This document shows positions 8,648 to 43,656 of a DNA stretch of 64,000 nucleotides, piece after piece; the first letter of the stretch is position 1; each line of letters opens with the position of its first letter. The position numbers were made by a program, and so were the translations under genes. Where the stretch lies: NCBI GenBank assembly GCA_964016885.1, contig OZ024744.1:112716001-112780000 (forward strand), in the 5' to 3' direction. The notes beneath the pieces were generated by a model. The model was not told the DNA's origin, ran no database searches, and worked only from the letters and a program-made list of their open reading frames with translations. Origin of the DNA: Eledone cirrhosa (Eukaryota).

Positions 8648-8990
8648 TACGATATATTAACAAATAGAAACTATATTTATAAAACCATATTTATTTCATT
8701 ATACATATTTCAAGGACACCAAGTTAAATTATGGTGTGCTTTCATCAGATAAAATATAATATAGAGCAGTTTTATAAATTAATATTGACATACCCTTAAA
8801 GAATGCGACCATTTCTGTTGGAAGCTCCCGGATAGTTTAACTTGGTGCCCTTGAAATATGTATAATGAAATAAATATGGCTTTATAAATATAGTTTCCAT
8901 TTGTTAATATCCTATTTTTACTCCAATTATTTGTTGAGTGTTTTATATCAGTTATAAACATCTTTGCTTGATGTATCCCAACAATTTAAA
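8648..8990 (-). mobile_element. Terminal fragment of the Penelope-like element at 36250-39992, with an inverted partial duplicate
   Basis: 8648-8836 is the reverse complement of ~39811-39995; 8836-8910 repeats part of it on the + strand. Confidence 0.8.
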
Positions 8991-9042
8991 TAGAACTTCT
9001 ACATATATATATATATATATATATGCATATATATATATATAT

Positions 9043-9568: not shown

Positions 9569-9757
9569 GGAACCAGTAAGACCCCGACAGCTGAGCTCAA
9601 GCCGTTTCGACGGCTAATTCTGGACTGAATTAGCCGTCGAAACGGCTTGAGCTCAGCTGTCGGGGTCTTACTGGTTCCTATTACCCACTCTACTACCTCA
9701 AGTATTGAGTACTTTGGTGCGTTATGGTCCACCTGGTTCCTTACCACATTTCCTTCG

Positions 9758-10500: not shown

Positions 10501-10707
10501 TGTGTATATATATATATATATTTATAATTGTATATATATATATATATAAGTATAAATATTATTATTATTACTATACATATATATATATATATGTATGTAT
10601 GTATTATTACTATATATATATGTATGTACTATATATATATATGTATTTAGTCCAGAAATAGCCGTCGAAACGGCTTGAGCTCTGCCGTCGGGGTCATACT
10701 TTCTCCT

Positions 10708-10743
<36 letters not shown>

Positions 10744-12759: not shown

Positions 12760-13252
12760 AGATTCCAGTGGAAGGAAGCTGCAGTTACGGAAGATCTGGG
12801 CAAAATGGTTAGGGATGATCTTCAAACACAGAACCTCCCTGAGGAGATGATGAAGGAATATGAGCAAAGGAAAGCTGTCCCAGAAAAGACTTGTCTAACC
12901 CATACTAGCATTGAAAAACATAAAATGGTATGATGTTTATATATAAAATAGCACAAAGTCAGTATCTGGGTGGTAAGGGGTTCGATCCCCATATATATAT
13001 ATATGGCTTGAGCTCAGCCGTCGGGGTCTTACTGGTTCCCATTACCCACTCTACTACCCTAAGTATTGAGTACTTTTGGTGCGTTATGGTCCACCTGGTT
13101 CCTTACCACATTTCCTTTGTTATATATACATATATATATATATATATAGACCCTTTGTGCTATTTTATATATAAACATCATACCATTTTATGTTTTTCAA
13201 TGCTAGTATGGGTTAGACAAGTCTTTTCTGGGACAGATTTCCTTTGCTCATA
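12760..13252. mobile_element. Old RTE 3' fragment whose last ~100 bp (12858-12958) are duplicated in inverted orientation at 13152-13252
   Basis: ATATGAGCAAAGGAAA.CTGTCCCAGAAAAGACTTGTCTAACCCATACTAGC...TAGCACAAAG and its reverse complement. Confidence 0.75.
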
Positions 13253-13276
13253 TATATATATATATATATTCTTTTG

Positions 13277-13314
<38 letters not shown>

Positions 13315-13357
13315 TATGTACACGTACATACATATATGTATACAGACGTACAGTAGT

Positions 13358-16300
13358 CATCATCATCATCATCATCATCATCAACGTTTAACGTCCGTGT
13401 TCCACGCTTGCATGGGTTTGGACGGGGGTAGTCCCACTTGAGGCAAGAGTGATTGTCTTGCTCGCATAGGACTGTCTGGCGGGTTTTCTACAGTTGGATG
13501 CCCTTCCTAACACCAACCACATTTACAGTGTGGGTCTGGGAGGTTTTTACCGTGTTGCCTACACGGCCACATTACAGCGTGGACTGTGTGTTTTTTTGTC
13601 GTGACACCTACACGATCTCATTTGTTTCGGCCTGGATGGCGCGGCACCAACATAACTTTACATAGAACGGGGTGGTGTGGATGGGGTGTGGGTGGTGGTG
13701 GTGGGACGGGGTGTATTTTGTTAGAGATGCCTACTGGCTGGAGTAGGTTTTACTATATATTTAGGTAAGGCGGGTCTTCTCTGTTACTGAGTACCGCCAA
13801 AGGTCTCGGTCCAGTGACATTGTCTTGGAGAGGTGTAAGTGTGTGAGGTCGGAGTTTATCAGCTCGTCCCAGGTTTTTCTAGGTCTGCCTATTCCGTGGC
13901 TACCGTCTATCTTTATTGCCCTGCACTTTGTTATACAGCTATCGACTTTCATGCGCATCACGTGTCCATACCAACGTAGCCTTCTCTCGAGTAAACAACA
14001 TCTGATCCCTCTTATCTCTAATTTTTTCCTTAGTTCGTTTATGCTTTGCTGTTCACGTATATTACTGTTACACATCCAGCGGAGCATGCAAGCTTCGTTC
14101 CTCTCTAGTCTGCGTATATCCTCTGCACACAATGCCCAGGTCTCACTGCCATGCAACATTGCTGTTCGTATGCAGGCATCGTACAACCTGCCTTTCATTT
14201 TTAGGGAGAACCCTTTAGCAGCTAATAGTGGTATAAGCTCTCTGAACTTTTTCCAACCAGTTCTGACTCTAGCTACAGTACTTTCAGAGCACCCTCCCCC
14301 ACTGCTGATTTTATTGCCCAGGTAACGGAAGCTGTCCACTATTTCTATAGAACCCTCTGCGCAATTGAAAGAGCTAGTATTTTGTGGGCACTTGCTGCTA
14401 CTTATTGCACCAGAACACCGGCCACATGTAAAATCTATGTTCTTAGTTAGCTTACCTGTGATCCCACTACATCTTTTATGCACCCATACTTTGCATTTAG
14501 GACATAAAATGGAGTTTCTACCTACGCCTTTCCTACACACCGAGCACGACCATTTCCCAGAAGGGACCGCCGCCTTGTTTTCTTTCCTACAAACTAGAAC
14601 TTTGGTCTTAGCCAGGTTAATTTTAAGTCCTTTTGACTCTAGGCCGTGCTTCCATGTTTTTGAATTTCTTCTCTAGCTCGGCCATTGTTTCCGCTATGAG
14701 TGTTAGGTCGTCTGCGTATAGGAGTTCCCATGGGCAGCCTGTCTTGAACTCCTCTGTTATAGCCTGAAGGGCAATAATAAATAGTAGGGGGCTGAGAACA
14801 GAGCCCTGATGGACGCCAACTTTTACGCTAAACTCTTCACTATATTCGTTGTTAATTCTAACCTTGCTGACTGTTTCTTTATACATGGCTTGTATAGCCC
14901 TCACAAGCCATTCGTCAATGCCTAGTTTTCTAAGAGCCCACCAGATAATGGAGCGGGGGACTCTGTCGAAGGCTTTCTCCAAGTCGACAAAAGCTAAGTA
15001 GAGGGGTTTACCTTTAGCTAGGTACTTCTCCTGTAGTTGTCGTACTATGAAAAGAGCGTCTGTGGTACTTTTGCCTGACACAAACCCGAACTGCATTTCA
15101 TCTAGGTCAATTCTCTCTCTGATTAGTTGCGCTATTACTTTTTCCGTGACCTTCATGACCTGGTCGGTTAATTTAATGCCTCTATAGTTACGCCTATCTA
15201 GGGCGTCTCCTTTACCCTTATAACAGTTAACGATGATGCTGCTATGCCAGTCCTTCGGAACAACCCCATTCTGTATGACTTGGTTAACTATGCGGGTGAC
15301 CATGGTGTGTCCCACCGTGCCAGATGCCTTCAGCATCTCAGCAACTATTTCCGAAGGCCCAGCCGCCTTACCCGTCTTCATATCCTTGATTGCCTTACTT
15401 ATTATACTCCCATCGACTAACACTGCTGGTCCCTCTATTGGGTCGATATGGAGGAGACTGTCTTTCTCCCATTTATTCTCCTCATTTAGTAGCCTTTCAT
15501 AGTGACACTTCCAAGCTACCTTCTTATCAGAGTCGGTGATGGCAAGTGTGCCATCATCGTGAAGTACACACTTCTCCCCGACAATATCACGGTTTTCCTT
15601 GACGCATTGCCTAGCAATCCTGAACACCTCACGTTTTTGGTCATCGCGTTGTAGAACATGCTTGAACTTTCTTTCCTCAGCTTCCCTTCTTGCTAAGTAC
15701 ACTTCTCTCCTAGCTTCCCTCCTGGCCACTTGATAGTCTACTCTACTTCCCCCATCCCGCCATACTTTCCAAGCCTGCTTTTTGGCCTTAATTGACCCCT
15801 CCACCTTACTGTTCCACCACCATGTTACTCTCCTCCTGCCTACAGGCCTGTTCCAGCCACAGACTTCGTCTGTCGCCAACAGCAGGTTTGCTTTCAGAAA
15901 TTCCCACTGTCCCTCTATATTGTCCGACTCTAAATGTTCTTCCTTACTGTCGAAAGCATCAAGTAATATGCTTTGAAATTTATTTCTGGCTGTGGGGTCC
16001 TTTAGCTTCCATATTTTTCTCCTGAGGATAGTCCTCTTCTGCTGTCGAGTACGTCTCGTCCTGACTATGAGGTCGCTAATTATCAGTCTATGTTGGGAGG
16101 TGCATTCTTCATGGGGGAGGGATTTAGTGTTTACAACAGACACTCTGTCACGTCTTCTGGTAAGGATATAATCTACCTGGCTTGTGTGTTCCCCGGATCT
16201 ATAGGTGATCAGGTGATTGTCACGTTTTTTGAAGTTAGTGTTACAGATAGTTAGGTTATTTGCATCACAGAATTCCAGGATTCTGGAGCCTTCCTCATTT

Positions 16301-17831
16301 CTAGTACCAAACCCATAGCCTCCATGGATTTCGTCGTAGCCGTCACAATGTTGTCCAACGTGACCATTTAGGTCGCCTGCAATAATTATATAGTCACTGT
16401 CAGATATTTGGGAGGTAGTTAGAATCAGTGTCTCATAGAATCTGTCTTTTATAGTGCCGGGCAGTCCGGATTGGGGTGCGTACGCAGATATTACTGTCAC
16501 CGTAGTTCTATTGAGGACAAGTCGTATTTTAATTATTCTGTCGTTCACTCTATTTACGTCTATTATCTTATCTGCCCACTTTTCTGCTACCATGATTCCT
16601 ACTCCACCCAGCCCATCGTCGTTTCCCACCCAGAAAAGCTTATAACATCGTTTTTTACCCTCAATGAATCTAGCAGACCCACCCCTCCACCTGGTCTCTT
16701 GAATACAACAAACATCGACCTCCTTACGTTCAAGCATTTCTACAACCTCGTTAGCGCGACCCTTTAGGGTGCCTACATTTATGGTACCAACTCTGAAGTT
16801 TTGGATTGCGTTTGGAGGGTGGGGGCGGTGGGGGGCGGGGGGAGATGGGGTTATGTTAGCCATCCGCGGACGAAACAAAGAGGAGTGCTCGCATTCTCGT
16901 CCACGAGGTGAATTTGACTTTAACTTTGGCATTTTCGCTCTGAGCGTCCAGATTTTTCTCTCCCTTCCACTCTCCAGGATTCCGCAGTCCATCCATCCAT
17001 CCATGCATCATATATCGAAGGCAACCGGGCAAGCGATAGTATAGGCCTCTGGCTTGTGATTGGTCCGCGTAATAATAATAATGGTGATGCGTGGGGGGGG
17101 GGGGTTCTGGTTTATGATTGGTCTACGTATTAAGAATGGTGGTATGTGGGGGCGAGTGGGAGGGGTGTGGGGGTAGCTAGCTGGAAGGTTATGAATGTTT
17201 AACAAGCGATTAACAAAAACGCAAAACTGCAAGATTTGTTCTGTTCAATACGACAAAAACAACCGTATTTAAATATAAATAAATAACAAAAAATACAGAT
17301 TTCGGATTTTGCAAGATTGGATGTTTGGACTAGGTACGAAATTGAAGCGTGGAGTAGATAGAAAAATGTGTACGTTACGATTACATGGGTACACCGTAGT
17401 AGGAATAATTGAAGCAGCAATGAATTGGCGAAAAGTGAATAAACATGAAGGGGAATTTATCTTATATATATATATATATATATGTAGCTAAGAGAGAGAG
17501 AGAGAGGGGAAGGGGGAGAGAGAGAGTGGCTGACCGCAGCCCCTCGTGAAGTAGATGGAGGGTGAAGGGTGTAGAAGCGGGATTGTTGACTTTCGAAGTA
17601 GCATAATATATATATTTAAAGGAATTTATAAGAAGTAGAATGGGAAGGATTTTGTTTTGTTTGAGAATACGATAGAATTAAGGAATTGGAGAATACGATA
17701 GAATTAAGGAATTGAGGAGCTGGAAGGTTATGAATGTTTAACAAGCGATTAACAAAAAAGCAAAACTGCAAGATTTGTTCTGTTCAATACGACAAAAACA
17801 ACCGTATTTAAACATAAATAAATAACAAAAA
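13358..17831 (-). mobile_element. Apparently full-length RTE-clade LINE with target-site duplication AGTAGT
   Basis: (GAT)n tail at 13358; AGTAGT at 13352-13357 and 17832-17837; the two flanks rejoin into a contiguous inverted 420-bp repeat unit. Confidence 0.85.
13761..17004 (-). CDS. RTE LINE ORF: AP endonuclease + reverse transcriptase + PHD-like finger; one frameshift near 14657-14661
   Basis: APE motifs TINVGTL, CIQETRW, AGDLNGHVG, QVDYIL, SQHR; RT motifs NYRGIKL, FVDLEKAFD, GVHQGSVLSPLLF, YADD, FRYLG; removing one A joins ORFs 14623-17004 and 13761-14540; true start codon uncertain. Confidence 0.9.
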
Positions 17832-17837
17832 AGTAGT

Positions 17838-18117
17838 ATGTATATATATATATACATACATGCACACATATATACATGTACGTATGGATTCACCGAAGAT
17901 TTATTATAATGCTCGGTGTATTTGTAAACAAACATCCCGTATTAAGCCGTAGTGTCTAGCAACCATCGTTGCTCGTTTGTTCAACACTGACAAAGGAAGG
18001 CTGTACTAGTTTCAAGCTTATTAGCTATCATCAGCAACGTATACCTTCCTGCCAGATTATTGAACGTATATACTTACCTTATGCGGCTGAGTAGCCCAAT
18101 TTGCATATCGAATTTGC
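17838..18117 (-). repeat. Inverted partial unit of the 420-bp HHR repeat (continues at 13311-13357 across the RTE insertion)
   Basis: Reverse complement of the array unit; minus-strand HHR at 17998-18040. Confidence 0.9.
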
Positions 18118-19593
18118 ACGTCTGTATACATATGTGTATGTACGTGTACATACTTATATTTAACTAACAGCCGTACTAAGAGTGGGAAGTGAAATTTTGT
18201 TTCATTTTTTTCCGTTTATCGTTTAAGATGCACCCGGCCGATTAACCCACTCGATATGCAAATTGGGCTACTTAGCCGTTAATATGCATAAGGTAAGTAT
18301 ATACGTTCAACAATCTGGCAGGAAGGTATACGTTGCTGATGATAGCTAATAAGCTTGAAACTAGTACAGCCTTCCTTTGTCAGTGTTGAACAAACGAGCA
18401 ACGATGGTTGCTAGATACTACGGCTTAATACGGGATGTTTGTTTACAAACACAGCGAGCCTTATAATAAATGTTTGGTGAATCCATACGTACATGTATAT
18501 ACGTGTGCATGTATGTATATATATATATACATACTACTGTACGTCTATATACATATGTGTATGTAAGTGAACATACTTATATTTAAGTAACAGCCGTACT
18601 AAGAGTGGGGAATGAAATTCCGTTTCATTTTTTCCGTTTATCGTTTTCGGTGCACCCGGCCGATTAACCCACTCGATATGCAAATTGGGCTACTCCGCCG
18701 TTAATATACATAAGGTAAGTATATACGTTCAACAATTTGGCAGGAAGGTATACGTTGCTGATGATAGCTAATAAGCTTGAAACTAGTACAGCGTTCCTTT
18801 GTCAGTGTTGAACAAATGAGCAACGATGGTTGCTAGACACTACGGCTTAATACGGGATGTTTGTTTACAAATGCACCGAGCATTATAATAAATGTTCAGT
18901 GAATCCATACGTACATGTATATATGTGTGCATGTATGTATATATATATACACACTACTGTACGTCTGTATACATATGTGTATGGACGTGTACATACTTAT
19001 ATTTAAGTAACAGCCGTACTAAGGGTGGGAAATGAAATTTTGTTTCATTTTTTTCCATTTATCGTTTTAGGTGCAGCCGGCCGATTAACCCACTCGATAT
19101 GCAAATTGGGCTACTCACCCGTTAATATGCATAAGGTAAGTATATACGTTCAACAGTCTGGCAGGAAGGTATACGTTGCTGACGATAGCTAATAAGTTTG
19201 AAACTAGTATAGCGTTCCTTTGTCAGTGTTGAACAAACGAGCAACGATGGTTGCTAGACACTGCGGCTTAACACGGGATCTTTGTTTACAAACACACCGA
19301 GCTTTATAATAAATGTTCGGTGAATCCATACGTACATGTATATATGTGTGCATGTATTTATATATATATACATACTACTGTACGTCTGTATACATATGTG
19401 TATGTACGTGTACATACTTATATTTAAGTAACAGCCGTACTAAGAGTGGGAAATGAAATTTAGTTTCATTTTTTTCCGTTTATCGTTTTAGGTGCACCCG
19501 GCCGATTAACCCACTCGATATGCAAATTGGGCTACCCACCCGTTAATATGCATAAGGTAAGTATATACGTTCAACAATCTGGCAGGAAGGTAT

Positions 19594-19636
19594 ACGTTGC
19601 TGACGATAGCTAATAAGCTTGAAACTAGTACAGCGT
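19594..19636 (+). ncRNA. Minimal type-I hammerhead ribozyme (representative array copy); predicted cleavage after GUA at 19630
   Basis: ACGTTG-CTGACGA-t-AGCT-aata-AGCT-t-GAAA-CTAG-TA-CAGCGT: stem I, CUGANGA core, stem II, GAAA, palindromic stem III, NUH triplet. Confidence 0.88.
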
Positions 19637-20199
19637 TCCTTTGTCAGTGTTGAACAAACGAACAACGATGGTTGCTAGACACTACGGCTTAATACGGATG
19701 TTTGTCTACAAACACACCGAGCATTATAATAAATGTTCAGTGAATCCATACGTACATGTATATATGTGTGCATGTATTTATATATATATACATACTACTG
19801 TACGTCTGTATACATATGTGTATGTATGTGTACATACGTACATTTGAGTAACAGCCGTACTAAGAGTGGGAAATGACATTTCGTTTCATTTTTTCCCGTT
19901 TATTGTTTTAGGTGCACCCGGCCGATTAAACACCTCGATATGCAAATTGGGCTACTCACCCGTTAATATGCATAAGGTAAGTATATACGTTCAACAATCT
20001 GGCAGGAAGGTATACGTTGCTGACTATAGCTAATAAGCTTGAAACTAGTACAGCGTTCCTTTGTCAGTGTTGAACAAGCGAGCAACGATAGTTGCTAGAC
20101 ACTACGGCTTTATACGGGATGTTTGTTTACAAACACACCGAGCATTATAATAAATGTTCGGTGAATCCATACGTACATGTATATATGTGTGTATGTATG

Positions 20200-20434
20200 T
20201 TTAGCAGTATTAGTTATAGATGTTATCGAGATACGAGTGACATAATAATTATTTCAACAGCAGAAATTAGAGATGAAATATACGTTTATTTTTTGATGTA
20301 GCACAAACAATGGTGTTGTACAGAGGCTGGTTTCTGGCGTGTGATCAGTCGGCTTTCCAGTGGCTGTCTGTCTTTTCTTTCTGGCGTTCTCAACCGGTGT
20401 TGTTCTATCAAGGAGCGTGAGGCATCTTACTACA
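20200..20434 (-). repeat. 3' LTR
   Basis: Direct repeat of 25421-25655; 4 substitutions seen by eye. Confidence 0.95.
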
Positions 20435-20633
20435 GTACCTCGAGCCAGATTTTCAAATTATCGAAAATCGATGTCATTACTCACATGTGGAGTAAGATGG
20501 CGAACAATGCAACAATCGAATCCAGAACAAGGATTTGAGAAATGTTAAAAAAAAACGACATGCATGCATAACAACACAAGGCAAAGAAAAAGCAGAAACA
20601 CAGAGGCAAAAAAAAAGTTGCAGCTAACATAGT

Positions 20634-21919
20634 CTAAATATAGACGGTGCTGCAAAATTTTTTTGGCCAGTGGACCCTACGACCTGAACGGGTCGTGGTC
20701 TTGTAACGTGGCGATGGTGGTGGTGTAGGGACAGGTGATGATGGTGGTTCAGGAACAGGCGTTCGCTCAACAGGCAAATACGAAGGGGTTCGTGGATCAG
20801 GAACCACAGCGTCCGTGTCAAGGTGCGCCTGCTTAAGCCTGTCTAATGTAACTGTCTCCCTGGACCCTTTAATATCTAATGTGAAATGCTTAGCCGAGCG
20901 CGCTAAGACACGGTAAGGTCCAGTGTAAGGCTGTGTGAGCGGGGGCTTCACCGTATCATTCCTTACAAAGACATGCGTCCACGAGGCAATATCCCTCGGG
21001 ACAGCAGTCTTGACAGTTTGTTTCCTAGTGTCCATTGGCGGCAAATCCTGGAAATAGGAGCGCAAACGGGACACGTAGGAAGCGTGATCTTGGGCATCAA
21101 GATCGATAGGGGCAAGCATTTGCCTGGGCAACGTCAGAGGGGCACCGTACAGTACTTCGGCCGGTGAAAATCCAAAGTCGACCTTCACCGTTGACCGAAT
21201 CCCTAGTAGCACAATAGGGAGGTACTCGCTCCAATGCGCCGAGTCCATTGAGGCCATTAAGGAGGCCTTCAGTTGGCGGTGAAAACGCTCCACCATACCA
21301 TTCGAAGCGGGATGGTATGCCGTAGTTTTAATGCGTTTAGCACCAATTAATTTTGACAGCTCGAGGAAAAGGCTCGACTCGAACTGTCGTCCACGGTCGG
21401 TAGTTATTGTGGATGGAACTCCATAACGAGAGATCCATCCAGACAAGAGCACGTGCTGTTGTCTCCGCGGTGATGTTTTTCAAGGGGATGGCCTCAGGCC
21501 ATCTCGAAAAACGGTCAATGACGGTAAGTAGATAAGAAAAACCATCGCTGACAGGCCAAGGTCTCACTATGTCAATATGAATGTGAAAAACGCGCATCTG
21601 GGTTAGCAAAGGTACCCAGGGGAGCCTTGACGTGTCGATGGACCTTTGATCTCTGGCAAGCGACGCAGGAACGGCACCAAGCAGCAATTTCACGCCTCAT
21701 ATTTGGCCAGAAAAATCTAGCTGATATGAGCTTTGCTGTGGCAGAAGATCCTGGATGTGAGATACAATGTAATCCCAGAAACACGGTCCGACGATGATTC
21801 TCTGGAACGAAGGGCCTAGGCACGTCCAAAGAGACGTCGCAGAGAATTTGGCCAACTGCAGTTGACAGAGGCAAGTATTTCATCTCGCAATTCGCAAACT
21901 CGGGCGATGTGACATCCAA
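20634..21919 (-). pseudogene. Gypsy integrase split by frameshifts
   Basis: HCISHPG...CVAC zinc site; HIDIV...[10 protein letters not shown]; [10 protein letters not shown]; NGMVERFH; GPY motif PYTGPYRV; spread over three ORFs. Confidence 0.9.
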
Positions 21920-23808
21920 TGACTCAAGGGGGGCTGATCCGCAGCCAAACGAGTCAGATCTATGTCAGAGGATGACGAGATCGCTGTCACGGGTAAGCGG
22001 GACAAAGCATCAGCCGCTGTATTTAGTGAACCCGGAATGTGCTGGATATCACTCGTATATTGCAAGATGAAATCAAGGTGTCTCGTCTCTCTGGGCGAGT
22101 ATTTATCAGCCTTCGCTCTCAAAGCAAAAGTCAATGGTTTATGGTCAGTGAGGATAGTAAATTGTCTACCCTCTAGCACATGTGAAATATGTTTCACGGC
22201 CAAATAGATGGCTAAAAGCTCTCTTCCAAAGGTGCTGTAGCGCGTCTCAGCAGGATTTAGCTTTTTGGAAAAAAACTCCAGCGGTTGCTGGTAACCATTG
22301 ATGTTTTGCTGTAGTACTGCGCCCACAGCGATATCCGATGCATCAACACAAAGCGTTAGCTTTGCACCGGGTACCGGGTGAGTCAGTAACGAAGCATTAG
22401 CCAAAACAGTTTTGGCGTGCTGAAAATCAGCAAGTTGAGTGTCTGTCAAAGAAATATCTTTGTTCTTCCTCCGACAATTTTTCAAAATTTCTGTCAGGGA
22501 GAAAAGCAATTTTGCACAATTTGGCACAAAACGCCTATAAAAGTTAACCAGACCTAAGAACTGGCGTAACTGACGTAGTGAGGTCGGTGGAGGCAAATTC
22601 TCTATGACCTTAACTCGCTTAGGCCGGGGTCGAATACCGTCAGCATCGATGACGTGACCCAAGAAAGTCAGTGACTCAGCACCAAAAACACATTTGGGTG
22701 CATTAAGCTGCACGTTATACGCCTTCAATCGGCGGAAAAGAAGATTCAAATGGTGCGTATGCTGCTCTGGAGAAGAACTAGCAATGAGCAGGTCGTCAAT
22801 ATAGGTATAGACGAAATCGAGGTCGCGAGTAACCTCATCCATAAACCGCTGAAAAGTACTAGCGGCATTCCTTAATCCGAACAGCATAGTCAAAAACTCG
22901 AACGACCCAAATGGCGTAACTATAGCCATTTTTGGAATGTCATTTTTATGGACAGGAATTTGATGGTACGCACGAATTAAATCCAGTTTGGAGAATATCT
23001 TGCATCCCTGCAACGAAGACGCAAAGTCTTGCAGATGAGGGATAGGATAACGGTCCGGTACCGTTATCGAATTCAGGCGTCGATAATCTCCAGTAGGTCT
23101 CCAATCGCCATTCGCTTTCGGTACCATGTGTAACGGGCTCGTGGACGGACGAATAATACCCATTTGCAGCATATGATCAAACTCTGATCGTGCTGCTTTG
23201 AGTTTGTCCGGAGGCAAGCGACGAGGACGAGAGAAAACAGGAGCACCAGTTATAGATATGAAGTGCTCCGTGGTATGAGTTGGTTCATCAAATCGAAAAT
23301 TTCTCCGAGTCAGTTGCGGGAACGAGTTCAACAACGCAGGGAAAGGATCACCGGTGTTAGCAAGAAAAAATGTCGGGCTAACCGTTGGAACTCCTGCTGC
23401 CTTGCCAACAACAGTTAATCCCGTGATGCCATCAATTAGGCGTTTACCACAAAGGTCCACCGTCAATGAAAAATGGTGGAGAAAATCCGCGCCTAGAATC
23501 GGATACGGCAAGGCAGCGACAGTAAATATCCATTTAAACTCGCGCCGCAGATTACGAAACTGCAAAGGTAACGAGATTTGTCCGAAAGTTTGAATCGGCG
23601 AACAATTTACTGCCTGCAACTCAATAGGCGTCTCAGGGGAAGTCTCCTTCATACAACACACAGGCCATACGGAACAAGCTGCACCTGTGTCAACCAGAAA
23701 AGCTCTACCTGACAGCAGGTCCTCAATGAAAAAGTGGCGGTTAGATGTTTCGCAGAGCGCACTATCCGCCGTTAGTGACTCTGGTCGTCTTTTCCCTCGT
23801 AAGCACAA
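21880..23808 (-). CDS. pol: Gypsy pol (protease, RT, RNase H), probably reached by -1 frameshift from gag
   Basis: FLVDTGA; DYRRLN; YIDD; DASD...ADALSR; slippery G GGA AAA at 23790-23796 in the gag/pol overlap. Confidence 0.92.
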
Positions 23809-24548
23809 GGAGGCCTACAACGGGCGGCTTTTTTACCATATCTTTCATGGTAATAACAACATGTTGTTCCTGGTGTGTTGGAAGGGCTACGGTGGCGAGA
23901 AGTTGAATAACGTCGTGAGCGGCTCCTCTGCCGTCCAAAGGACCTGAATTCCTTGCACAACTCCGCCATTTGACGAGTCATGGCTTCCATAGTGGTGATT
24001 AAATTGTCATCAGACGCTGATGAGCGTGATTGAGGAAGAGAAGAGGAAGCAACGTACTTTGGCTTCGAAGTGTCCCTCTTCGTCACCTCTACAATTTTGT
24101 CAGCAGAGACAGCAATGTGATCCAGGGTATTCACCTCTAGCATATGGGCTAGGATCGCCTGTACCTCTTGAGGTAGGCGAGAGAAGAACAATTGCTTCAG
24201 GAAAGGGCTATCCTGATCTTGAGAATCGCTCAAATCCCGCAAATGCCGGAGAAAAGCGGTAGGGGTCCTGTCACCTAATCGTTCATCCTCGATCAATGAC
24301 CGAAAACGACTCTCTACCGACTTACAATTCCTCCTCAAAATCTCGCCCTTCAAAAACTCATACGTCAAGTCAGAGAGGGGGTCTGTAATTAGGTCTTGGA
24401 CCGAATCTGCTAGATTAGGGGGAAGGCCGCTAATCAGTACAGCGAGGCGCTGGTCAGATTCGGTCTTACAGACCGTAAAATACGCCTGTAACTGGGCAAA
24501 CCACATCTTAGGTTTTCCAGTAAAGGCGGGCAAATGTGGTACATTCAT
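23772..24548 (-). CDS. gag: Gypsy gag-like protein
   Basis: LPAF...[10 protein letters not shown]-terminus, [11 protein letters not shown]-terminal [12 protein letters not shown]. Confidence 0.88.
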
Positions 24549-25406
24549 GTCAACTTTTAAAATTAAAACAAATATATATACCTATATATCTAAAGAGCAA
24601 TTAATGTACCCTTGTACAGTGAAAAGAGAACAGCCAATATTGAGAAAAAGTTAAAGGGCAAAAAGAAACAGACATTCAAAACATAAGGAAATATTCAAAA
24701 TACATAAAATACAGATATATATCTTTAAAAAAAAAATTTTCCTTGAACGTCTGTCCCCTCGTGTTGCCTCAACGAACCAGCCAAATCAAATAAGGTAAAA
24801 AAGAGGAGGAAAAAAATGTTTTTATGTTTTTTATTTTTAAATATATCCGCGTTGGATATCAACAAAGGTAGCCAGTGGCTAAAAATCCCTTAGAAAAAGG
24901 TAAGGCATGTATATCCCCATGCGGGGCAGTTATGTTCACAAAAAAAAGTTTAGTCTCTTCTCTCTTGATCAGTCATGGAACACACACGCAATTCAAAAAA
25001 TGTGTCCGTTACAAAACTGGGAAGTAACGCAACGCCGCCTTGGAAAAATACACTTTTTTCTTTTTTCTTCTGTAAGTTGCGAAAAAGTTGGCAACGGAAA
25101 TGAAATATTCAAGTGAATAAAAAAAAATTGCTCTAAATTATCGACACGAATGAATCATTTTGATATTTCCGATGTGTGGTGGTTTGCGTCGGTAAGGCTA
25201 TGAAGCTGCCACTCACTATTCCCTGTTTTGGTCAGTGGTTAAACAATGTTGTCGCTGATGCTGCTGTCGTTGTTGTTGTCGAGTGTAGCAAAAAGTTTCT
25301 TGAAATACTACTAATATTTCAATAATTTTAAAAGGAATATTTTTTATTTTCGCAAGTTGCGAAAAAAGGCCGGCAACGTGAAAAAGAAGGGCTGCGTTAA
25401 ATTCTT

Positions 25407-25419
25407 ACGTCGGTCACCA
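25407..25419 (-). promoter_or_regulatory. Primer-binding site, tRNA-Trp-like with a 2-nt deletion
   Basis: TGGTGACCGACGT one base inside the 5' LTR versus the tRNA-Trp complement TGGTGACCCCGACGT. Confidence 0.7.
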
Positions 25420-25420
25420 C

Positions 25421-25655
25421 TTTAGCAGTATTAGTTATAGATGTTATCGAGATACGAGTGACATAATAATTATTTCAACAGCAGAAATTAGAGATGAAAT
25501 ATACGTTTATTTTTTGATGTAGCACAAACAATGGTGTTCTACAGAGGCTGGTTTCTGGCGTGTGATCCGTCGGCTTTCCAGTGGCTGTCTGTCTTTTCTT
25601 TCTGGCGTTCTCAACCGGCGTTGTTCTATCAAGGAGCGTGAGGCGTCTTACTACA
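25421..25655 (-). repeat. 5' LTR
   Basis: Direct repeat of 20200-20434; adjacent to the PBS. Confidence 0.95.
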
Positions 25656-28600
25656 TATGTATATATATATACACACTACTGTACGTCTGTATACATATGT
25701 ATATGTACGTGTACATACTTATATTTAAGTAACAGTCGTTCTAAGAGTGGGGAATGAAATTCCGTTTCATTTTTTCCGTTTATCGTTTTAGGTGCATCCG
25801 GCCGATTAACCCACTCGATATCCAAATTGGGCTACTCAGCCGTTAATATGCATAAGGTAAGTATATACGTCCAACAGTCTGGCAGGAAGGTATACGTTGC
25901 TGACGATAGCTAATAAGCTTGAAACTAGTACAGCGTTCCTTTGTCAGTGTTGAACAAACGAGCAACGATGGTTGCTAGACACTACGGCTTACTACGGGAT
26001 GTTTGTTTACAAACACACCGAGCATTATAATAAATGTTCGATGAATCCATACGTACATGTATATATGTGTGCATGTAAGTATATATATATACATACTACT
26101 GTACGTCTGTATACATATGTGTATGTACGTGTACATACTTATAATTAAGTAACAGCCGTATTAAGAGTGGGAAATGAAATTTCATTTCTTTTTTTTTTCC
26201 TTTTATCGTTTTAGGTGCACGCGGCCGATTAACCCACTCGATATGCAAATTACGCTACTCACCCGTTAATATGCATAAGGTAAGTATATACGTTCAACAA
26301 TCTGGCAGGAAGGTATACGTTGCTGACGATAGCTAATAAGCTTGAAACTAGTACAGCGTTCCTTTGTCAGTGTTAAACAAACGAGCAGCGATGGTTGCTA
26401 GACACTACGGCTTAATACGGGATGTTTGTTTACAAACACACCGAGTATTATAATAAATGTTCGGTGAATCCATACGTACATGTATATATGTGTGCATGTA
26501 TGTATATATATATAGATACTACTGTACGTCTGTATACATATGTGTATGTACGTGTACATACTCATATTTAAGTAACAGCCGTACTAAGAGTGGGAAATGT
26601 TTTTCGTTTCATTTTTTTCCGTTTATCGATTTAGGTGCACCCGGCCGATTAACCCACTCGATATGCAAATTAGGCTACTCAGCCGTTAATATGCATAAGG
26701 TAAGTATATGCGTTCAACAATCTGGCATGAAGGTATACGTTGCTGACGATAGCTAATAAGCTTGAAACTAGTACAGCGTTCCTTTGTCAGTGTTAAACAA
26801 ACGAGCAGCGATGGTTGCTGGACACTACGGCTTAATACGGTGTGTTTGTTTACAAACACACCGAGCATTATGATAAATGTTCGGTGAATCTATACGTTCA
26901 TGTATATGTGTGTGCATGTATGTATATCTATATACATACTACTGTACATCTGTATACATATGTGTATGTACGTGTACATACTTATATGTAAGTAACAGCC
27001 GTACTAAGAGTGGGAACTGAAATTTCGTTTCATTTTTTTCCGTTTATCGTTTTAGGTGCACTCGGCCGATTAACCCACTCGATATGCAAATTGGGCTACT
27101 CAGCCGTTAATATGCATAAGGTAAGTATATACGTTTAACAATCTGGCAGGAAGGTATACGTTGCTGAAGATAGCTAATAAGCTTGAAACTAGTATAGCGT
27201 TCCTTTGTCAGTGTTGAACAAACGAGCAACGATGGTTGCTAGACACTATGGCTTAATACGGGATGTTTGTTTACAAGCAGACCGAGCATTATAATAAATG
27301 TTCGGTGAATCCATACGTACATGTATATATGTGTGCATGTATGTATATATATATAAATAAAACTGTACGTATGTATATATATGTGTATGTACGTGTACAT
27401 ACTTATATTTAAGTAACAGCCGTACTAAGGGTGGGAAATGAAATTTCGTTTCCTTTTTTTCCGTTTATTGCTTTCGGTGCACCCGGCCGATTAACCCACT
27501 CGATATGCAAATTGGGCTACTCAGCCGTTAATATGCATAAGGTAAGTATATACATTCAACAATCTGGCAGGAATGTATACGTTGCTGACGATAGCTAATA
27601 AGCTTGAAACTAGTAAAAATTCCTTTGTCAGTGTTAAACAAACGAGCAGCGATGGTTGCTGGACACTACGGCTTAATACGGTGTGTTTGTTTACAAACAC
27701 ACCGAGCATTATGATAAATGTTCGGTGAATCTATACGTACATGTATATGTGTGTGCATGTATGTATATCTATATACATACTACTGTACGTCTGTATACAT
27801 ATGTGTATGTACGTGTACATACTTATATTTAAGCAACAGCCGTACTAAGAGTGGGAAATGAAATTTCGTTTCATTTTTTCCGTTTATTGTTTTCGGTGCA
27901 CCCGGCCGATTAACCCACTCGATATGCAAATTCGGCGACTCAGTCCTTAATATGCAAAAGGTAAGTATATACGTTCAACAATCTGACAGGAAGGTATACT
28001 TTGCTGACGATAGCTAATAAGCTTGAAACTAGTACAGCGTTCCTTTGTCAGTTTGAACAAACGAGCAACGATGGTTGCTAGACACTACGGCTTAATACGG
28101 GATGTTTGTTTACAAACACACCGAGCATTATAATAAATGTTCGGTGAATCCATACGTACATGTATATATGTGTGCATGTATGTATATATATATCAATAAT
28201 ACTGTACGTCTGTATACATATGTGTATGTACGTGTACTTACTTATATTTAAGTAACAGCTGTACTAAGAGTGGAAAATGAAATTTCGTTTCATTTTCTTC
28301 CGTTTATTGCTTTCGGTGCACCCGGCCGATTAACCCACTCGATATGCAAATTGGGCTACTCAGCCGTTAAATGCATAAGGTAAGTATATATGTTCAACAA
28401 TCTGGCAGGAAGGTATACGTTGCTGACGATAGCTAATAAGCTTGAAACTAGTACAGCGTTCCTTTGTCAGTGTTGAACAAACGAGCAACGATCGTAGCTA
28501 GACACTACGGCTTAATACGGGATGTTTGTTTACAAACACCCCGAGCAATATAATAAATGTTCCGTGAATCCATACGTACATGTATATATGTGTGCATGTA

Positions 28601-31124
28601 TGTATATATATAAATACTACCGTACGTCTTGAAACATATGTGTATATACGTGTAGATACTTATATTTAAGTAACAGCCGTAATAAGAGTGGGAAATGAAA
28701 TTTCGTTTCATTTTTTTCCGTTTATCGCTTTAGGTGCACCCGGCCGATTAACCCACTTGATATGCAAATTGGGCTACTCAGCCGTTAATATGCATAAGGT
28801 AAGTATATACTTTCAACAATTTGACAGTAAGGTATACGTTGCTGACGATAGCTAATAAGCTTGAAATTAGTACAGCGTTCCTTTGTCAGTGTTGAACAAA
28901 TGAGCAACGATCGTAGCTAGACACTACGGCTTAATACGGGATGTTTGTTTACAAACACCCCGAGCAATATAATAAATGTTCCGTGAATCCAAACGTACAT
29001 GTATATATGTGTGCATGTATGTATATATATATAAATAATACTGTACGTCTGTATACATATGTGTATGTACGTGTACATACTTATATTTAAGTAGCAGCCG
29101 TACTAAGAGTGGGAAATGAAATTTTGTTTCATTTTTTTCCGTTTAACGTTTTAGATGCACCCGGCCGATTAACCCACTAGATATGCAAATTGGGCTACAC
29201 AGCTGTTAATATGCATAAGGTAAGTATATACGTTCAACAATCTGGCAGGAAGGTAAACGCTGCTGACGATATTTAATAAGCTTGAAACTAGTACAGCGTT
29301 CCTTTGTCAGTGTTAAACAAACGAGCAGCGAGGGTTGCTAGACACTACGGCTTAATACGGTATGTTTGTTTACAAACACACCGAGCATTATAATAAATGT
29401 TCGGTGAATCCATAAGTACATGTATATATGTGTGCATGTATGTATATATATATACACACTACTGTACGTCTGTATACATATGTGTATGTACGTGTACATA
29501 CTTATATTTAAATAACAGCCATACTAAGAGTGGGAAATGAAATTTTGTTTCTTTTTTTCTTCTTTTATCGTTTTAGGTGCATCCGGCCGATTAACCCACT
29601 CGATATGCAAATTGGGCTACTCACCCGTTAATATGCATAAGGTAAGTATATACGTTCAACAATCTGGCAGGAAGGTATACGTTGCTGACGATATTTAATA
29701 AGCTTGAAACTAGTACAGCGTTCCTTTGTCAGTGTTAAACAAACGAGCAGCGAGGGTTGCTAGACACTACGGCTTAATACGGTATGTTTGTTTACAAACA
29801 CACCGAGCATTATAATAAATGTTCGGTGAATCCATAAGTACATGTATATATGTGTGCATGTATGTATATATATATACACACTACTGTACGTCTGTATACA
29901 TATGTGTATGTACGTGTACATACTTATATTTAAATAACAGCCATACTAAGAGTGGGAAATGAAATTTTGTTTCTTTTTTTCTTCTTTTATCGTTTTAGGT
30001 GCATCCGGCCGATTAACCCACTCGATATGCAAATTGGGCTACTCACCCGTTAATATGCATAAGGTAAGTATATACGTTCAACAATCTGGCAGGAAGGTAT
30101 ACGTTGCTGACGATAGTTAATAAGCTTGAAACTAGTACAGCGTTCCTTTGTCAGTGTTAAACAAGCGAGCAGCGATGGTTGCTAGACACCACGGCTTAAT
30201 ACGGGATGTTTGTTTACAAACACACCGAGCATTATAATAAATGTTCGGTGAATGCATACGTACATGTATATATGTGTTCATGTATGTATATATATATACA
30301 TACTACTGTACGTCTGTATACATATGTGTATGTACGTGTACATACTTATATTTAAGTAACAGCCGTATTAAGAATGGGAAATGAAATTTTGTTTCATTTT
30401 TTTCCGTTTATCGTTTTAGATGTACCCAGCCGATTAACCCACTCGATATGCAAATTGGGCTACTCACCCGTTAATATGCATAAGGTAAGTATATACGTTC
30501 AACAATCTGGCAGGAAGGTAAAAGTTGCTGTTGATAGCTAATAAGCTTGAAACTAGTACAGCGTTTCTTTGTCAGTGTTAAACAAACGAGCAGCGATGTT
30601 TGCTAGACACTACGGCTTAATACGGGATGTTTGTTTACAAACACACCGAGTATTATAATAAATGTTCGGTGAATCCATACGTACATGTATATATGTGTGC
30701 ATGTATGTATATATATACACACACTACTGTACGTCTGTATACATATGTGTATGTATGTGTACATACATATATTTAAGTAACAGCCGTACTGAGAGTGGGA
30801 AATGACAATTCGTTTCATTTTTTTTCGTTTATCGTTTTAGGTGCATCCGGCCGATTAACCCACTCGATATGCAAATTGTGCTACTCACCCGTTATTATGC
30901 ATAAGGTAAGTATATACGTTCAACAATCTGGCAGGAAGGTAAAAGTTGCTGATGATAGCTAATAAGCTTGAAACTAGTACAGCGTTCCTTTGTCAGTGTT
31001 AAACAAACGAGCAGCGATGGTTGCTAGACACTACGGCTTAATACGGGATGTTTGTTTAAAACACACCGAGCATTATAATAAATGTTCGGTGAATCCATAC
31101 GTACATGTATATATGTATGCATGT

Positions 31125-31126
<2 letters not shown>

Positions 31127-31162
<36 letters not shown>

Positions 31163-32090
31163 TTTACGTCCGCTTTTCCTTGCTTGCAAGGGTGGGACGG
31201 GTCTTATTCAGCACAGCATCTCTCCACTCGTCACGGTCCCTCGTCATCTCCACCGTGAGCTTCAATGATCTGAGGTCTGTTCTCACCACCTCCGCCCATG
31301 TTTTTCGTGGTCTACCTCTACTACGTCTTCCTTCAACTGGCATTTCCTGGCACTTCTTCACCCATCGGTCATCCTCCATGCGCATCACATGTCCATACCA
31401 CCTCAGTCTCCTCTCCCGTACACTACATTCTATCCCTCTCAGACACAGTTTCTCTCTCAACACATTTATGCTGGGTCGTTCACGCACATTTACACTGCAC
31501 ATCCAACGGAGCATGCTGGCCTCATTTCTCTCCAGCCGTCGCATATCTTCTGCGGTAGCTGCCCATGTCTCACTACCATGCAGCATCGCGCTCCTCACAC
31601 AGGCATCATACAACCGGCCTTTCGTACGCAGGGAGAAACCCTTCTTCGTCAACAGAGGAAGCAGCTCCCTAAACTTCTTCCAACCCGTCCTTATTCTAGA
31701 TACTATGGCCTCGGAAAACCCTCCTCCCATGCTAATCTGATCTCCTAGGTACCGGAAGCTATCCACCACTTCTATAGCGCCCTCTCGCATTTGAAAAATG
31801 TGTCTATCAGTGCGACTTCTACTGTCTAATTTCCCTGTACATCTACTGCATACATATTTCTCCCTACCTGTTAGTTTGCCTGCTATCCCGCTACATCTCT
31901 TGTGTACCCAGGACCTACATTGTGTGCATTTTATAGAATTTATGCCAGTTCCTTTTCTGCATATCGAACATGGCCATTTCCCTGACGGAATCAGGGTTTT
32001 GTCCTCTTTTCTACTCATTAACACTTTTGTCTTAGCTAGATTTACTCTCAGTCCTCTTGCTTCCAACTGCTGTTTCCATAGCCGGAATTT
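31127..32090 (-). mobile_element. 5'-truncated RTE LINE (second subfamily), TSD ATGTAT
   Basis: Open frame KFRLWKQQLEARGLRVNLAKTKV...FRYLG...LRWYGHV...GRPRKTW...KEKRT* followed directly by (GAT)n; ATGTAT at 31121-31126 and 32091-32096. Confidence 0.92.
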
Positions 32091-34760
32091 ATGTATATAT
32101 ATATGTATATATATATGTATGTATATATATATACACACTACTGTACGTCTGTATACATATGTGTATGTACGTGTACATACTTATATTTAAGTAACAGCCG
32201 TACTAAGAGTGGGAATTGAAATTTCGTTTCATTTTTTTCCGTTTATCGATTTAGGTGCATCCGGCCGACTAACCCACTCGATATGCAAATTGGGCTACTC
32301 ACCCGTTAATATGCATAAGGTAAGTATATAAGTTCAACAATCTGGCAGGAAGGTATACGTTGCTGACGATAGCTAATAAGCTTGAAACTAGTACAGCCTT
32401 CCTTTGTCAGTGTTGAACAAACAATCAGCGATGGTTGCTAGACACTACGGCTTAATACGGGATGTTTGTTTACAAACATACCGAGTATTATAATAAATGT
32501 TCGGTGAATCCATACGTACATGTATATATGTGTGCATGTATATATATATACATACTACTGTACGTCTGTATACATATGTATATGTACGTGAACATACTTA
32601 TATTTAAGTAACAGCCGTACTAAGAGTGAGAAATGAAATTTAGTTTCATTTTTCTCCGTTTATCGTTTTAGGTGCATCCGGCCGATTAACCCACTCGATA
32701 TGCAAATTGGGCTACTCAGCCGTTAATATGCATAAGGTAAGTATATACGTTCAACAATCTGGCAGGAAGGTAAAAGCTGATGATGATAGCTAATAAGCTT
32801 GAAACAGGTACAGCGTTCCTTTGTCAGTGTTAAACAAACAAGCAGCGATGGTTGCTAGACACTACGGCTTAATACGGGATGTTTGTTTACAAACACACCG
32901 AGCATTATAATAAATGTTCGGTGAATCCATACGTACATGTATATATGTGTGCATGTAAGTATATATATATACATACTACTGTACGTCTGTATACATATGT
33001 GTATGTACGTGTACATACTTATATTTAAGTAACCGCCGTACTAAGAGTGGGAAATGAAATTTCGTTTCATTTTTTTTCCGTTTATAGCTTTCGGTGCACC
33101 CGGCCGATTAACCCACTCGATATGCAAATTGGGCTACTCAGCCGTTAATATTCATGAGGTAAGTATATACGTTCAATAATCTGACAGGAAGGTATACGTT
33201 GCTGACGATAGCTAATAAGCTTGAAACTATTACAGCGTTCCTTTGTCAGTTTGAACAAACGAGCAACGATGGTTGCTAGACACTACGGCTTAATACGGGA
33301 TGTTTGTTTATAAACACACCGAACATTATAATAAATATTCGGTGAATCCATACGTACATGTATATATGTGTGCATGTATATATATATATACACACAACTG
33401 TACGTCTGTATACATATGTGTATGTACGTGTACATATTATATTTAAGTAACCGCCATACTAAGAGTGGGAACTGAAATTTTGTTTCATTTTTTTCCGTTT
33501 ATCGTTTTAGGTGCACCCGGCCGATTAACCCACTCGATATGCAAATTGGGCTACTCAGTCGTTAATATGCAAAAGGTAAGTATATACGTTCAACAATCCG
33601 ACAGGAAGGTATACGTTGCTGACGATAGCTAATAAGCTTGAAACTAGTACAGCGTTCCTTTGGCAGTTTGAACAAACGAACAACGATGTTTGCTAGACAC
33701 TACGGCTTAATACGGGATGTTTGTTTATAAACACACCGAGCATTATAATAAATGTTCGGTGAATCCATACGTACATGTATATATGTGTGCATGTATGTAT
33801 ATATATATAAATAAAACTGTACGTATGTATATATATGTGTATGTACGTGTACATACTTATATTTAAGTAACAGCCGTACTAAGAGTGGCAAATGAAATTT
33901 TGTTTCATTTTTTTCCGTTTATTGCTTTCGGTGCACCCGGCCGATTAACCCACTCGATATGCAAATTGGGCTACTCAGCCGTTAATATGCATAAGGTAAG
34001 TATATACGTTCAACAATCTGGCAGGAATGTATAGGTTGCTGACGATAGCTAATAAGCTTGAAACTAGTACAGCGTTCCTTTGTCAGTGTTGAACAAACGA
34101 GCAAAGATGGTTGCTAGACACAACGGCTTAATACGGGATGTTTGTTTACAAACACCCCGAGCAATATAATAAATGTTCGGTGAATCCATACGTACATGTA
34201 TATATGTGTGCATGTATGTATATATATATATACATAATACTGTACGTCTGTATACATATGTGTATGTACGTGTACATACTTATATTTAAGTAACAGCCGT
34301 ACTAAGAGTCGGAAATGAAATTTCGTTTCATTTTTTTCCGTTTATCGTTTTAGGTGCACCCGGCCGATTAACCCACTCGATATGCAGATTGGGCTACTCA
34401 GTCGTTAATATGCATAAGGTAAGAATATATGTTCAACAATCTGGCAGGAAGGTATACGTTGCTTACGATAGCTAATAAGCTTGAAACTACTACAGCGTTC
34501 CTTTGTCAGTGTTGAACAAACAAGCAACGATCGTTGCTTGATACTACGGCTTAATACGGGATGTTTGTTTACAAACACACCGATCATTATAATAAATGTT
34601 CTGTGAATCCATACGTACATGTATATATGTGTGCATGTATGTATATATATATACATACTACTGTACGTCTGTATACATATGTGTATGTAAGTGTACCTAC
34701 TTATATTTAAGTAACAGCCGTACTAAGAGTGGGAACTGACATTTCGTTTCATTTTTTTCC

Positions 34761-34831
<71 letters not shown>

Positions 34832-35138
34832 TATATATATATAAAAACAAATAACGAAACGAAATTAAATTTCGTTTCGTTTGTAACTCACTTTTGTATG
34901 ACTGACGCTTAAACAATTAAGTTAAAAATGTACATCTACATATGCATACTGAAATACTAGTGTGTATATGAATACACACACGTATACATATGTAGGTGTA
35001 CCAAGTCTTTCACTGGTCCCTTTACAGTGAGCGGCCCAGCTATTCTGTATGTAAACACACAGACAAACCGGTTTTTAGAGTCATACTGGTTTTTCGGGGG
35101 AACACCTTCCCCCTATTCTCCAGAAAGCCAGACAAGGA

Positions 35139-35181
35139 ATATTGAACTAGTTTCGTTGTTGTTACAACTCATCAGCAATAT
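35139..35181 (-). ncRNA. Minimal type-I hammerhead ribozyme (inverted copy)
   Basis: Exact reverse complement of 35577-35619. Confidence 0.88.
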
Positions 35182-35576
35182 TTACCTATCTACCGGCCTT
35201 TCTGGAGAATTGTAAAAGCACATATCGTTATATGCTTTTTCTATGAAAGCGACCAGCGATCACTGTAAAGCGACCAGTGAAAGACTTGGTACACCTACAT
35301 ATGTATACGTGTGTGTATTCATATACACACTAGTATTTCAGTATGCATATGTAGATGTACATTTTTAACTTAATTGTTTAAGCGTCAGTCATACAAAAGT
35401 GAGTTACAAACGAAACGAAATTTAATTTCGTTTCGTTATTTGTTTTTATCGTCTCCGCTGAACCGGTGCGTACTCACACTCTATGCAAATTAGTCTGCCC
35501 ACTACTAATTTTCATAGAAAAAGCATATAACGATATGTGCTTTTACAATTCTCCAGAAAGGCCGGTAGATAGGTAA

Positions 35577-35619
35577 ATATTGCTGATGAGTTGTAACAAC
35601 AACGAAACTAGTTCAATAT
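35577..35619 (+). ncRNA. Minimal type-I hammerhead ribozyme; predicted cleavage after GUU at 35613
   Basis: ATATTG-CTGATGA-GTTGT-aaca-ACAAC-GAAA-CTAG-TT-CAATAT, stems I and II perfectly paired. Confidence 0.9.
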
Positions 35620-35877
35620 TCCTTGTCTGGCTTTCTGGAGAATAGGGGGAAGGTGTTCCCCCGAAAAACCAGTATGACTCTAAAAACCGGTTTGTCTGTG
35701 TGTTTACATACAGAATAGCTGGGCCGCTCACTGTAAAGCGACCAGTGAAAGACTTGGTACACCTACATATGTATACGTGTGTGTATTCATATACACACTA
35801 GTATTTCAGTATGCATATGTAGATGTACATTTTTAACTTAATTATATATATATACATACGTACATATATATATATAC

Positions 35878-39991: not shown

Positions 39992-39992
<1 letters not shown>
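36250..39992 (+). mobile_element. Penelope-like retroelement (Naiad-like), 5'-truncated and degraded
   Basis: RT and GIY-YIG fragments, long AT-rich 3' UTR, terminal segment also found at 8648-8910; flanked by (TA)n. Confidence 0.85.
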
Positions 39993-40066
<74 letters not shown>

Positions 40067-41051: not shown

Positions 41052-43635
<2,584 letters not shown>

Positions 43636-43656
43636 TATATATATATATATATATAT

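Follow-up and report, generated by a model that had tools for sequence, protein, structure and literature searches.

Hammerhead retrozymes of Eledone cirrhosa as two-armed insertions with fixed ends, probably made by a Penelope-like enzyme

How two arrays of hammerhead-bearing repeats came to begin with an inverted piece of their own unit is the question raised by a 64,000-nucleotide stretch of the Eledone cirrhosa genome (assembly GCA_964016885.1, contig OZ024744.1, positions 112,716,001 to 112,780,000; this whole stretch is the window, and coordinates are given within it). A first-pass annotation of positions 13311–18400 had taken the inverted piece ahead of an array of 421-bp repeats, and a similar one in a neighboring 468-bp repeat, for Penelope-type inverted 5′ parts, and had proposed that the arrays were seeded by reverse transcription of a multimeric or circular RNA. 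The interval was found to be the left end of a single 21.5-kb insertion of the 421-bp hammerhead repeat, and the inverted piece is not an L1-style inverted 5′ part; it represents a second arm, which has a fixed 3′ end of its own. A layout of two arms with fixed ends, one short and one long, was confirmed as a real and general feature of both families. These repeats, which fit the description of retrozymes, are probably two-arm insertions into (TA)n tracts made by the reverse transcriptase (RT) and endonuclease of a Penelope-like element (PLE), priming at two internal sites of what was likely one circular RNA.

Aligned with each other, the 421-bp and 468-bp units match in 279 of 480 columns, with a local score of 153 against 29 ± 5 in 200 shuffles, and their short and long end sites correspond in the alignment, by which the two repeats were shown to be homologous and of one lineage. 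Each unit folds into a type I hammerhead whose helix III has just two pairs; helices I and II differ between the families yet are paired in each. The 468-bp unit was matched to the Rfam family HH9 (E value 7.7e-8, 38.6 bits, under the gathering score of 52), and no gathering-level match to Rfam was obtained for the units. No open reading frame (ORF) of at least 120 aa was found in the retrozyme arrays of the window; the repeats are without a long terminal repeat (LTR), primer-binding site or polypurine tract, and their ends abut (TA)n directly. As judged from sequence, both repeats fit non-LTR retrozymes (tandem units of roughly 150–450 bp or slightly more) with a predicted self-cutting hammerhead, the single units of which may be cleaved slowly, as helix III has only two base pairs. 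Both are dispersed in many copies: a pattern search of the genome for the exact long end followed by TA gave 2129 matches for the 468 family and 4441 for the 421 family, with 0 in the controls; the (TA)n targets of the first-pass annotation are borne out. The block ATGCAAAT is present in each unit of both families, about 35–40 nt beyond the long site (18255–18262 and 35483–35490), and is among their best-conserved blocks; we take it to match the octamer promoter element, and it could belong to an internal promoter. A third relative of the retrozymes, about 75% identical to the 421 family and with an identical short end, was observed at two sampled loci (L058:7397-7938 and L059:7220-7621), in the latter joined to a Hydra-type PLE at the end that carries the endonuclease.

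Outer ends were mapped in score-ranked samples, the 32 best loci of the 468 family and the 37 best of the 421 family, and in 31 PLE loci out of about 38 on a list (one without a match). To counter score bias, the 30 pattern matches that come first on C1 were added for each end of each family. Unit position 1 is the first base after the ribozyme cut. Pairing was judged by eye on script output, with duplicates collapsed and second arms down to 7–20 nt accepted if they matched the terminal sequence; the 421 family was mapped with a low-complexity filter owing to noise from TA-like matches. The outer ends of the 468 family lie at unit positions 230–235 (short) or 300–304 (long), and those of the 421 family at 212–217 (short) or about 274 (long). 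Insertions consist of two outward-facing arms at (TA)n, the long end reaching about 60–70 nt beyond the short site; the second arm can be as short as about 7 nt or as long as 14 kb, and either arm may be the long one. Among position-ordered loci, two arms were seen in 27 of 30 for the 468 family and in 21 of 28 for the 421 family, so that the inversions of the window recur elsewhere. Circularly permuted outer ends, also expected by the first-pass annotation, were rejected, since the outer ends keep to two fixed sites, of which each arm has one.

The pairing of the two ends was found to be close to strict. For the 468 family, the score-ranked set (n = 33 including the window) gave 25 short+long insertions, 3 with an interrupted end and 5 single or unresolved; the long-anchored set (n = 30) gave 25 short+long, 3 single and 2 unresolved, and the new short-anchored loci (n = 14) gave 13 short+long and 1 single. 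All 63 readable two-arm insertions of these unselected sets are thus short+long, a count from which six further short+long loci, picked by coordinates, were excluded. Similarly, when the 100 long and 54 short ends located in the first 124 Mb of C1 were compared by coordinates, divergent pairs no more than 5 kb apart numbered 30 long-short, 0 long-long and 0 short-short. For the 421 family (n = 91), 42 of 47 readable insertions were short+long, one was short+short and four had second arms at neither site, the remaining 44 being single, interrupted, hybrid or unresolved. The PLE family of the window behaves alike, with an 87-nt tail on one arm only in 18/18 readable two-arm insertions. Another hammerhead-bearing PLE end (L038:5259-5560 and about 20 more loci) was also observed to be two-armed, with two fixed ends about 65 nt apart.

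Within the window, the insertion of the 421-bp unit starts in a (TA)n tract seen in the sequence at 13250–13311. The inverted fragment reported ahead of the array was borne out on the minus strand in two pieces: an outer piece at 13312–13357, identified by alignment to the units and ending at the short site (about unit position 212–217, with a terminal ACTAAT against the majority ACTTAT), and an inner piece at 17838–18111, which carries a type I hammerhead core (CTGATGA from 18034) and an 8-nt deletion. Together they are 93–94% identical to unit 1. The arm was split by a later insertion of a long interspersed nuclear element (LINE) at 13358–17831 (minus strand, 4.5 kb), which takes up most of the interval 13311–18400; it was recognized by Pfam as an APE+RT element, its tail is of (CAT)n type, its ORF is split over two frames (14626–17007 and 13764–14672), and a 6-bp target duplication, AGTAGT, stands at 13352–13357 and 17832–17837. 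We assume this LINE to be RTE-like. The arms meet head-to-head at 18098–18118, where AATTTGCA at 18098–18105 is repeated as a short templated copy at 18111–18118 (plus strand). The direct arm (18118–34766, plus strand) has 24 full units and one partial unit and terminates in (TA)n with the long end CCGTTTAT at unit position of about 274; it is interrupted by a Gypsy-type element at 20201–25655 (LTRs identical at 231 of 235 positions) and by a second LINE at about 31127–32089. The type I hammerhead core was found by pattern in 22 of the 24 units and in the inverted arm. The variants CTGATGA and CAGCCT are indeed common to the inverted arm and unit 1, as first noticed, though not private to them (5/24 and 2/24 full units, respectively). 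The inverted arm differs from unit 1 by 9 mismatches and the 8-nt deletion, against 11–21 differences from other units, and 3 of the 5 minor variants common to it and unit 1 fall in the TA-like stretch of the unit; these shared variants carry little weight, as conversion between neighbors or chance would also fit. The tree of the 24 units is mostly star-like (3 of 21 inner branches supported, mean 27 differences), with variants shared by units 14–16, 8/10 and 12/13/23. We infer that the array is mostly one long arm of a two-arm event, later split by the LINE, the Gypsy-type element and the second LINE, and that it also holds a few local duplications.

The Gypsy-type element, which also occurs at L040 and L351, has LTRs of the form TG...AA and a 5-bp target-site duplication (TSD). 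It stands at an identical unit position in the window and at L040, near which it recurs in tandem; a general targeting of the retrozyme was rejected, since 0 of 30 LTR ends, about half of them internal, had retrozyme flanks. L040 was compared as a possible paralog of the inversion junction of the window, and its unit order was unlike that of the window, the 6 kb examined containing tandem Gypsy copies.

The 421 and 468 insertions have a (TA)n tract in common (34764–34843), and such tracts surround both, as initially described. The 468-bp insertion is short, with an inverted arm at 34844–35248 (minus strand, long end at unit position 304) that crosses the ribozyme cut, in agreement with the earlier remark that this copy reads through the unit junction, then an 11-nt templated insert, GCGACCAGCGA, at 35249–35259 (plus strand), and a direct arm at 35260–35843 (plus strand, short end at unit position 230, hammerhead 35565–35636). 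The coordinates and the details of the junctions given by the first-pass annotation stand. Next to it stands a truncated PLE (36250–39993, plus strand, hammerhead core at 39899, short end), which is 5′-truncated and broken by stops and shows the motifs DKT, LWK, CxCX5C, CxxC and CxH. With a C-terminal GIY-YIG endonuclease, DKT, an RWK-like motif, CxCX5C, CxxC, CxH, a hammerhead and (TA)n, it agrees with the published definition of the Hydra clade, to which it is assigned by these motifs. Naiad, named earlier as the comparator, is unsuitable, and the identity was ruled out, since Naiad has an N-terminal endonuclease and lacks a canonical hammerhead, whereas in the local PLEs the endonuclease is C-terminal and a canonical hammerhead is present. 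The Penelope terminus reported to have the same architecture does so, with a minus arm at 8649–8836 (short end) and a plus arm at 8838–8992 bearing the 87-nt tail. A second Hydra-type family was noticed at 41060–43640; its 3′ untranslated region contains a long TA/TG microsatellite, and it has a short hammerhead at 43573 and intact copies with identities up to 99.5% (L242–L246). Elsewhere in the window, long 20-bp and 40-bp satellite arrays (50134–63997) are unrelated to the retrozyme insertions, and short palindromic elements of the GAGCTCAAGCCGTTTCGACGGCT type, common in the sampled loci too, lie in TA tracts at 9569–9668 and 10650–10710.

Of the 12 loci inspected, 5 had an impure TA target and a readable TSD of about 9–11 bp; in the other 7 the TA flanks are too pure for it to be read. 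The 66 inner junctions comprised 38 with overlaps (35 of them of 1–9 nt), 7 that were flush and 21 with inserts of 1–19 nt, and the inner breakpoints of paired arms were mostly unrelated. Inner ends were concentrated at the tail hairpin (30 of 142 in unit positions 240–280 vs. about 12 expected). Entire two-arm insertions had also been tandemly duplicated with their flanks after insertion at L033 and L274–L277.

The process that we propose would begin with a Penelope-like RT/endonuclease, supplied in trans, nicking both target strands. Each nick would prime a cDNA on what is probably one circular RNA, starting at one of two different internal sites, which an asymmetric dimer would allot one per strand; the circle may be copied round many times, and the two truncated cDNAs would then be joined head-to-head through microhomology or short templated patches. 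If each strand chose its site independently, half of the insertions would pair like with like; the pairing being near-strict, a coordinated asymmetric dimer is the simplest account. Whether such a dimer, with a fixed start per strand, rolls both cDNAs round one ribozyme circle, so that a single insertion yields a two-armed satellite of as many as 30 units or more, we regard as an even call.

As regards the template, a cleaved linear monomer was rejected: 110 of 142 arms read across the ribozyme cut, and there is no excess of inner ends lying 5 nt or less from it (4 vs. 3.0 expected), which rules out this simple form. The paired arms at each locus represent one sequence variant, and those at L178, L185, L189, L199, L227, L229 and L238 are mutually closer than to any other sampled locus. 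At L228, 18 unit copies in both arms show 0 differences, and at L222/L223 the units of a 14.3-kb arm are 0.5–0.8% apart. Divergence within one arm is about equal to that between arms, as expected if the arrays date from insertion, and the likeness of units over both arms of long arrays suggests that arrays were born long. It is thus likely that they were laid down long at insertion rather than seeded and then amplified; of the earlier proposal, a Penelope-type footprint and a multimeric or circular template stand, and seeding followed by amplification does not. Rolling-circle copying of a circular template is the version that we somewhat favor. Its closest competitor, the same two-site priming on a linear multimer transcribed from a young uniform array and left uncleaved, with no circle, is possible but clearly less probable. 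Invariant arrays such as L228 exist, the two-pair helix III perhaps makes single-unit cleavage slow, and in vitro, according to the part of the study drawn on here, insertion was independent of ribozyme cleavage and used mainly unprocessed RNA as substrate (PMC11167929). A linear template should nevertheless leave a mirror pattern between arms, and none was seen at 19 loci, where rank-matched units of opposite arms differed by 0.78% (87/11187) and unmatched units by 0.76% (230/30411); L234 was excluded from this pool, its own values being 2.1% vs. 2.4%. Variants in the long arms L222, L230, L236, L030 and L024 are mostly singletons, and retrozyme circles are described as abundant in other animals (PMC7229834). 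Uniform arrays like that of L228 could themselves serve as linear multimeric templates, a case that the mirror test leaves possible.

Single priming, followed by fold-back or by twin priming of the L1 type to give the inverted piece and by unequal crossing-over to lengthen the array, is unlikely and is disfavored as a general mechanism. The second primer of L1 twin priming lands at variable internal upstream positions; the head-to-head junctions with microhomology and the two target-primed cDNAs are alike in both cases, whereas the arms described here start at fixed sites one tail apart and overlap over nearly their whole length. The closeness of the inverted arm of the window to its neighbor, unit 1 (9 mismatches, against 11–21 for the others), the enrichment of inner junctions at the tail hairpin and the variants common to some units would suit such an origin. 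Both arms, however, abut target DNA at fixed and different sites, their inner breakpoints are mostly unrelated, the long arm can be either one, same-arm divergence is no lower than cross-arm divergence and the tree of the window units is star-like.

Since the retrozymes bear the footprint of PLEs, a PLE enzyme acting in trans is the likely agent, and from this footprint its role in their insertion is held to be very probable. Two families hold intact young Hydra-type ORFs, the copies reaching identities of 99.5% and 99.0%, respectively. As parents of the units, both the PLE of the window and the second Hydra-type family were rejected for want of clear DNA or pseudo-LTR (pLTR) similarity. At six loci (L006, L038, L048, L059, L085 and L270), an arm of a retrozyme family is joined directly to PLE-like sequence, which belongs to several PLE families and at L006 is presumably Neptune-like, going by its motifs; these hybrids are no more than suggestive, and co-copying or deletion between neighboring insertions in one TA tract may explain them. 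Mobilization by a LINE, such as the abundant APE+RT elements, with a layout that only resembles that of PLEs, is very improbable. LINEs are abundant and have inserted into these arrays, and a PLE donor of the units was not found among those compared; the retrozymes, however, have neither a poly(A) nor a simple-repeat tail of their own, and their internal fixed ends, two arms and one-arm tail all match PLE loci. That the inversions are assembly artefacts can practically be dismissed: the window junction 18111–18118 was unbridged among the contig pieces listed (26 of 295), but more than 100 loci have differing junctions with constant outer ends, templated inserts and target duplications occur, an intact LINE with its own TSD lies inside the inverted arm, and six strand-switch joints were found in contigs of run X1 (which may be the assembly's own sample), one of them fitting the L005 junction.

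Several observations weigh against two-site priming by a PLE enzyme on a circle as the whole explanation. Short+short insertions were encountered at L221 (468 family, found by a targeted scan of a coordinate list) and at L317, the 421-family second arms at L284, L291, L297 and L307 lie at neither site, and the hybrids L038 and L048 read long+long. Array variants common to several units (L223, L235, L234 and the window units) indicate that later duplication or conversion contributes, and the affinity of the window inverted arm to unit 1 is also expected from fold-back or later gene conversion. DNA similarity between the units and the 3′ region of the window PLE was not above that of shuffles, bar a marginal score of 40 against a shuffle maximum of 39, and the units gave only TA-like matches with 18 sampled PLE loci. 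Additionally, the start site did not differ between strands in vitro, so far as the portion of that work used here goes (PMC11167929).

The comparisons that follow draw on parts of the papers cited. For PLEs, an adjacent inverted 5′-truncated copy has been described, as has a tail that is often present at one end only (Craig et al. 2021, PMC8557442); a PLE protein cleaves and extends both strands, and the tail is defined by the two internal sites from which its RT starts (Frangieh et al. 2024, PMC11167929); and mobilization of retrozymes by PLEs has already been proposed (PMC7229834; bioRxiv 10.64898/2026.07.22.740005; review PMC11722881). The Eledone repeats resemble metazoan non-LTR retrozymes (Cervera and de la Pena 2020, PMC7229834; Li, Clavereau and Pollet 2026) in being tandem, low-GC, non-coding units of a few hundred bp with one type I hammerhead each, for which a PLE driver and a circle-to-tandem-cDNA model were put forward. 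The case for the published retrozymes, in the portions consulted, rests on co-occurrence and pLTR phylogeny, with no mention of two arms, a tail or fixed ends, whereas for the units described here it is the anatomy of insertions; unlike the published ones, they have no pLTR parent among the two Hydra-type families compared. Local amplification of a PLE end is favored in the 2026 preprint (bioRxiv 10.64898/2026.07.22.740005), whereas the Eledone arrays look born long. With the endonuclease-positive PLEs of the Hydra clade, which have a canonical hammerhead, the retrozymes share the inverted truncated copy, the tail often at one end and the (TA)n targets, and they differ in their non-coding units and in arms of up to 30 tandem units (PMC8557442). 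Tails are about 60–70 nt in the retrozymes and 87 nt in the local PLE, against 30–40 nt in published Hydra-clade PLEs, and what is "often at one end" there becomes a near-strict rule of one short and one long end in the Eledone retrozymes (PMC8557442). In the in vitro system of Poseidon_Ac, as we read it, both strands are nicked and extended at AT-rich DNA from two internal RT starts by a predicted dimer (PMC11167929); the RNA there is the element's own and linear, and neither a strand difference in start site nor the pairing of sites within single insertions is reported in the part of the paper on which this comparison rests.

Retrozymes, inverted and tailed PLE insertions and the idea of PLEs as movers of retrozymes are therefore already in print, and what appears to be new is the footprint and the pairing rule in retrozymes. 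A two-arm, fixed-end retrozyme footprint, the pairing rule and born-long arrays were not found described in a literature search of partial coverage, outside which older work on Penelope falls. Both the mover of animal retrozymes and the origin of tandem, inverted and tailed PLE insertions are called open in the literature consulted in part, and the two-arm footprint ties retrozymes to PLEs through the anatomy of insertions rather than through co-occurrence. For the in vitro PLE assay, the prediction is that every product will show just one start site on each strand and that a circular template will yield multimers. The thousands of young copies make the genome of Eledone cirrhosa a good test set. 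If the asymmetric-dimer, rolling-circle mechanism is true, these hammerhead satellites would owe their origin to retrotransposition and not to a later amplification of DNA, a one-step route to satellite DNA.

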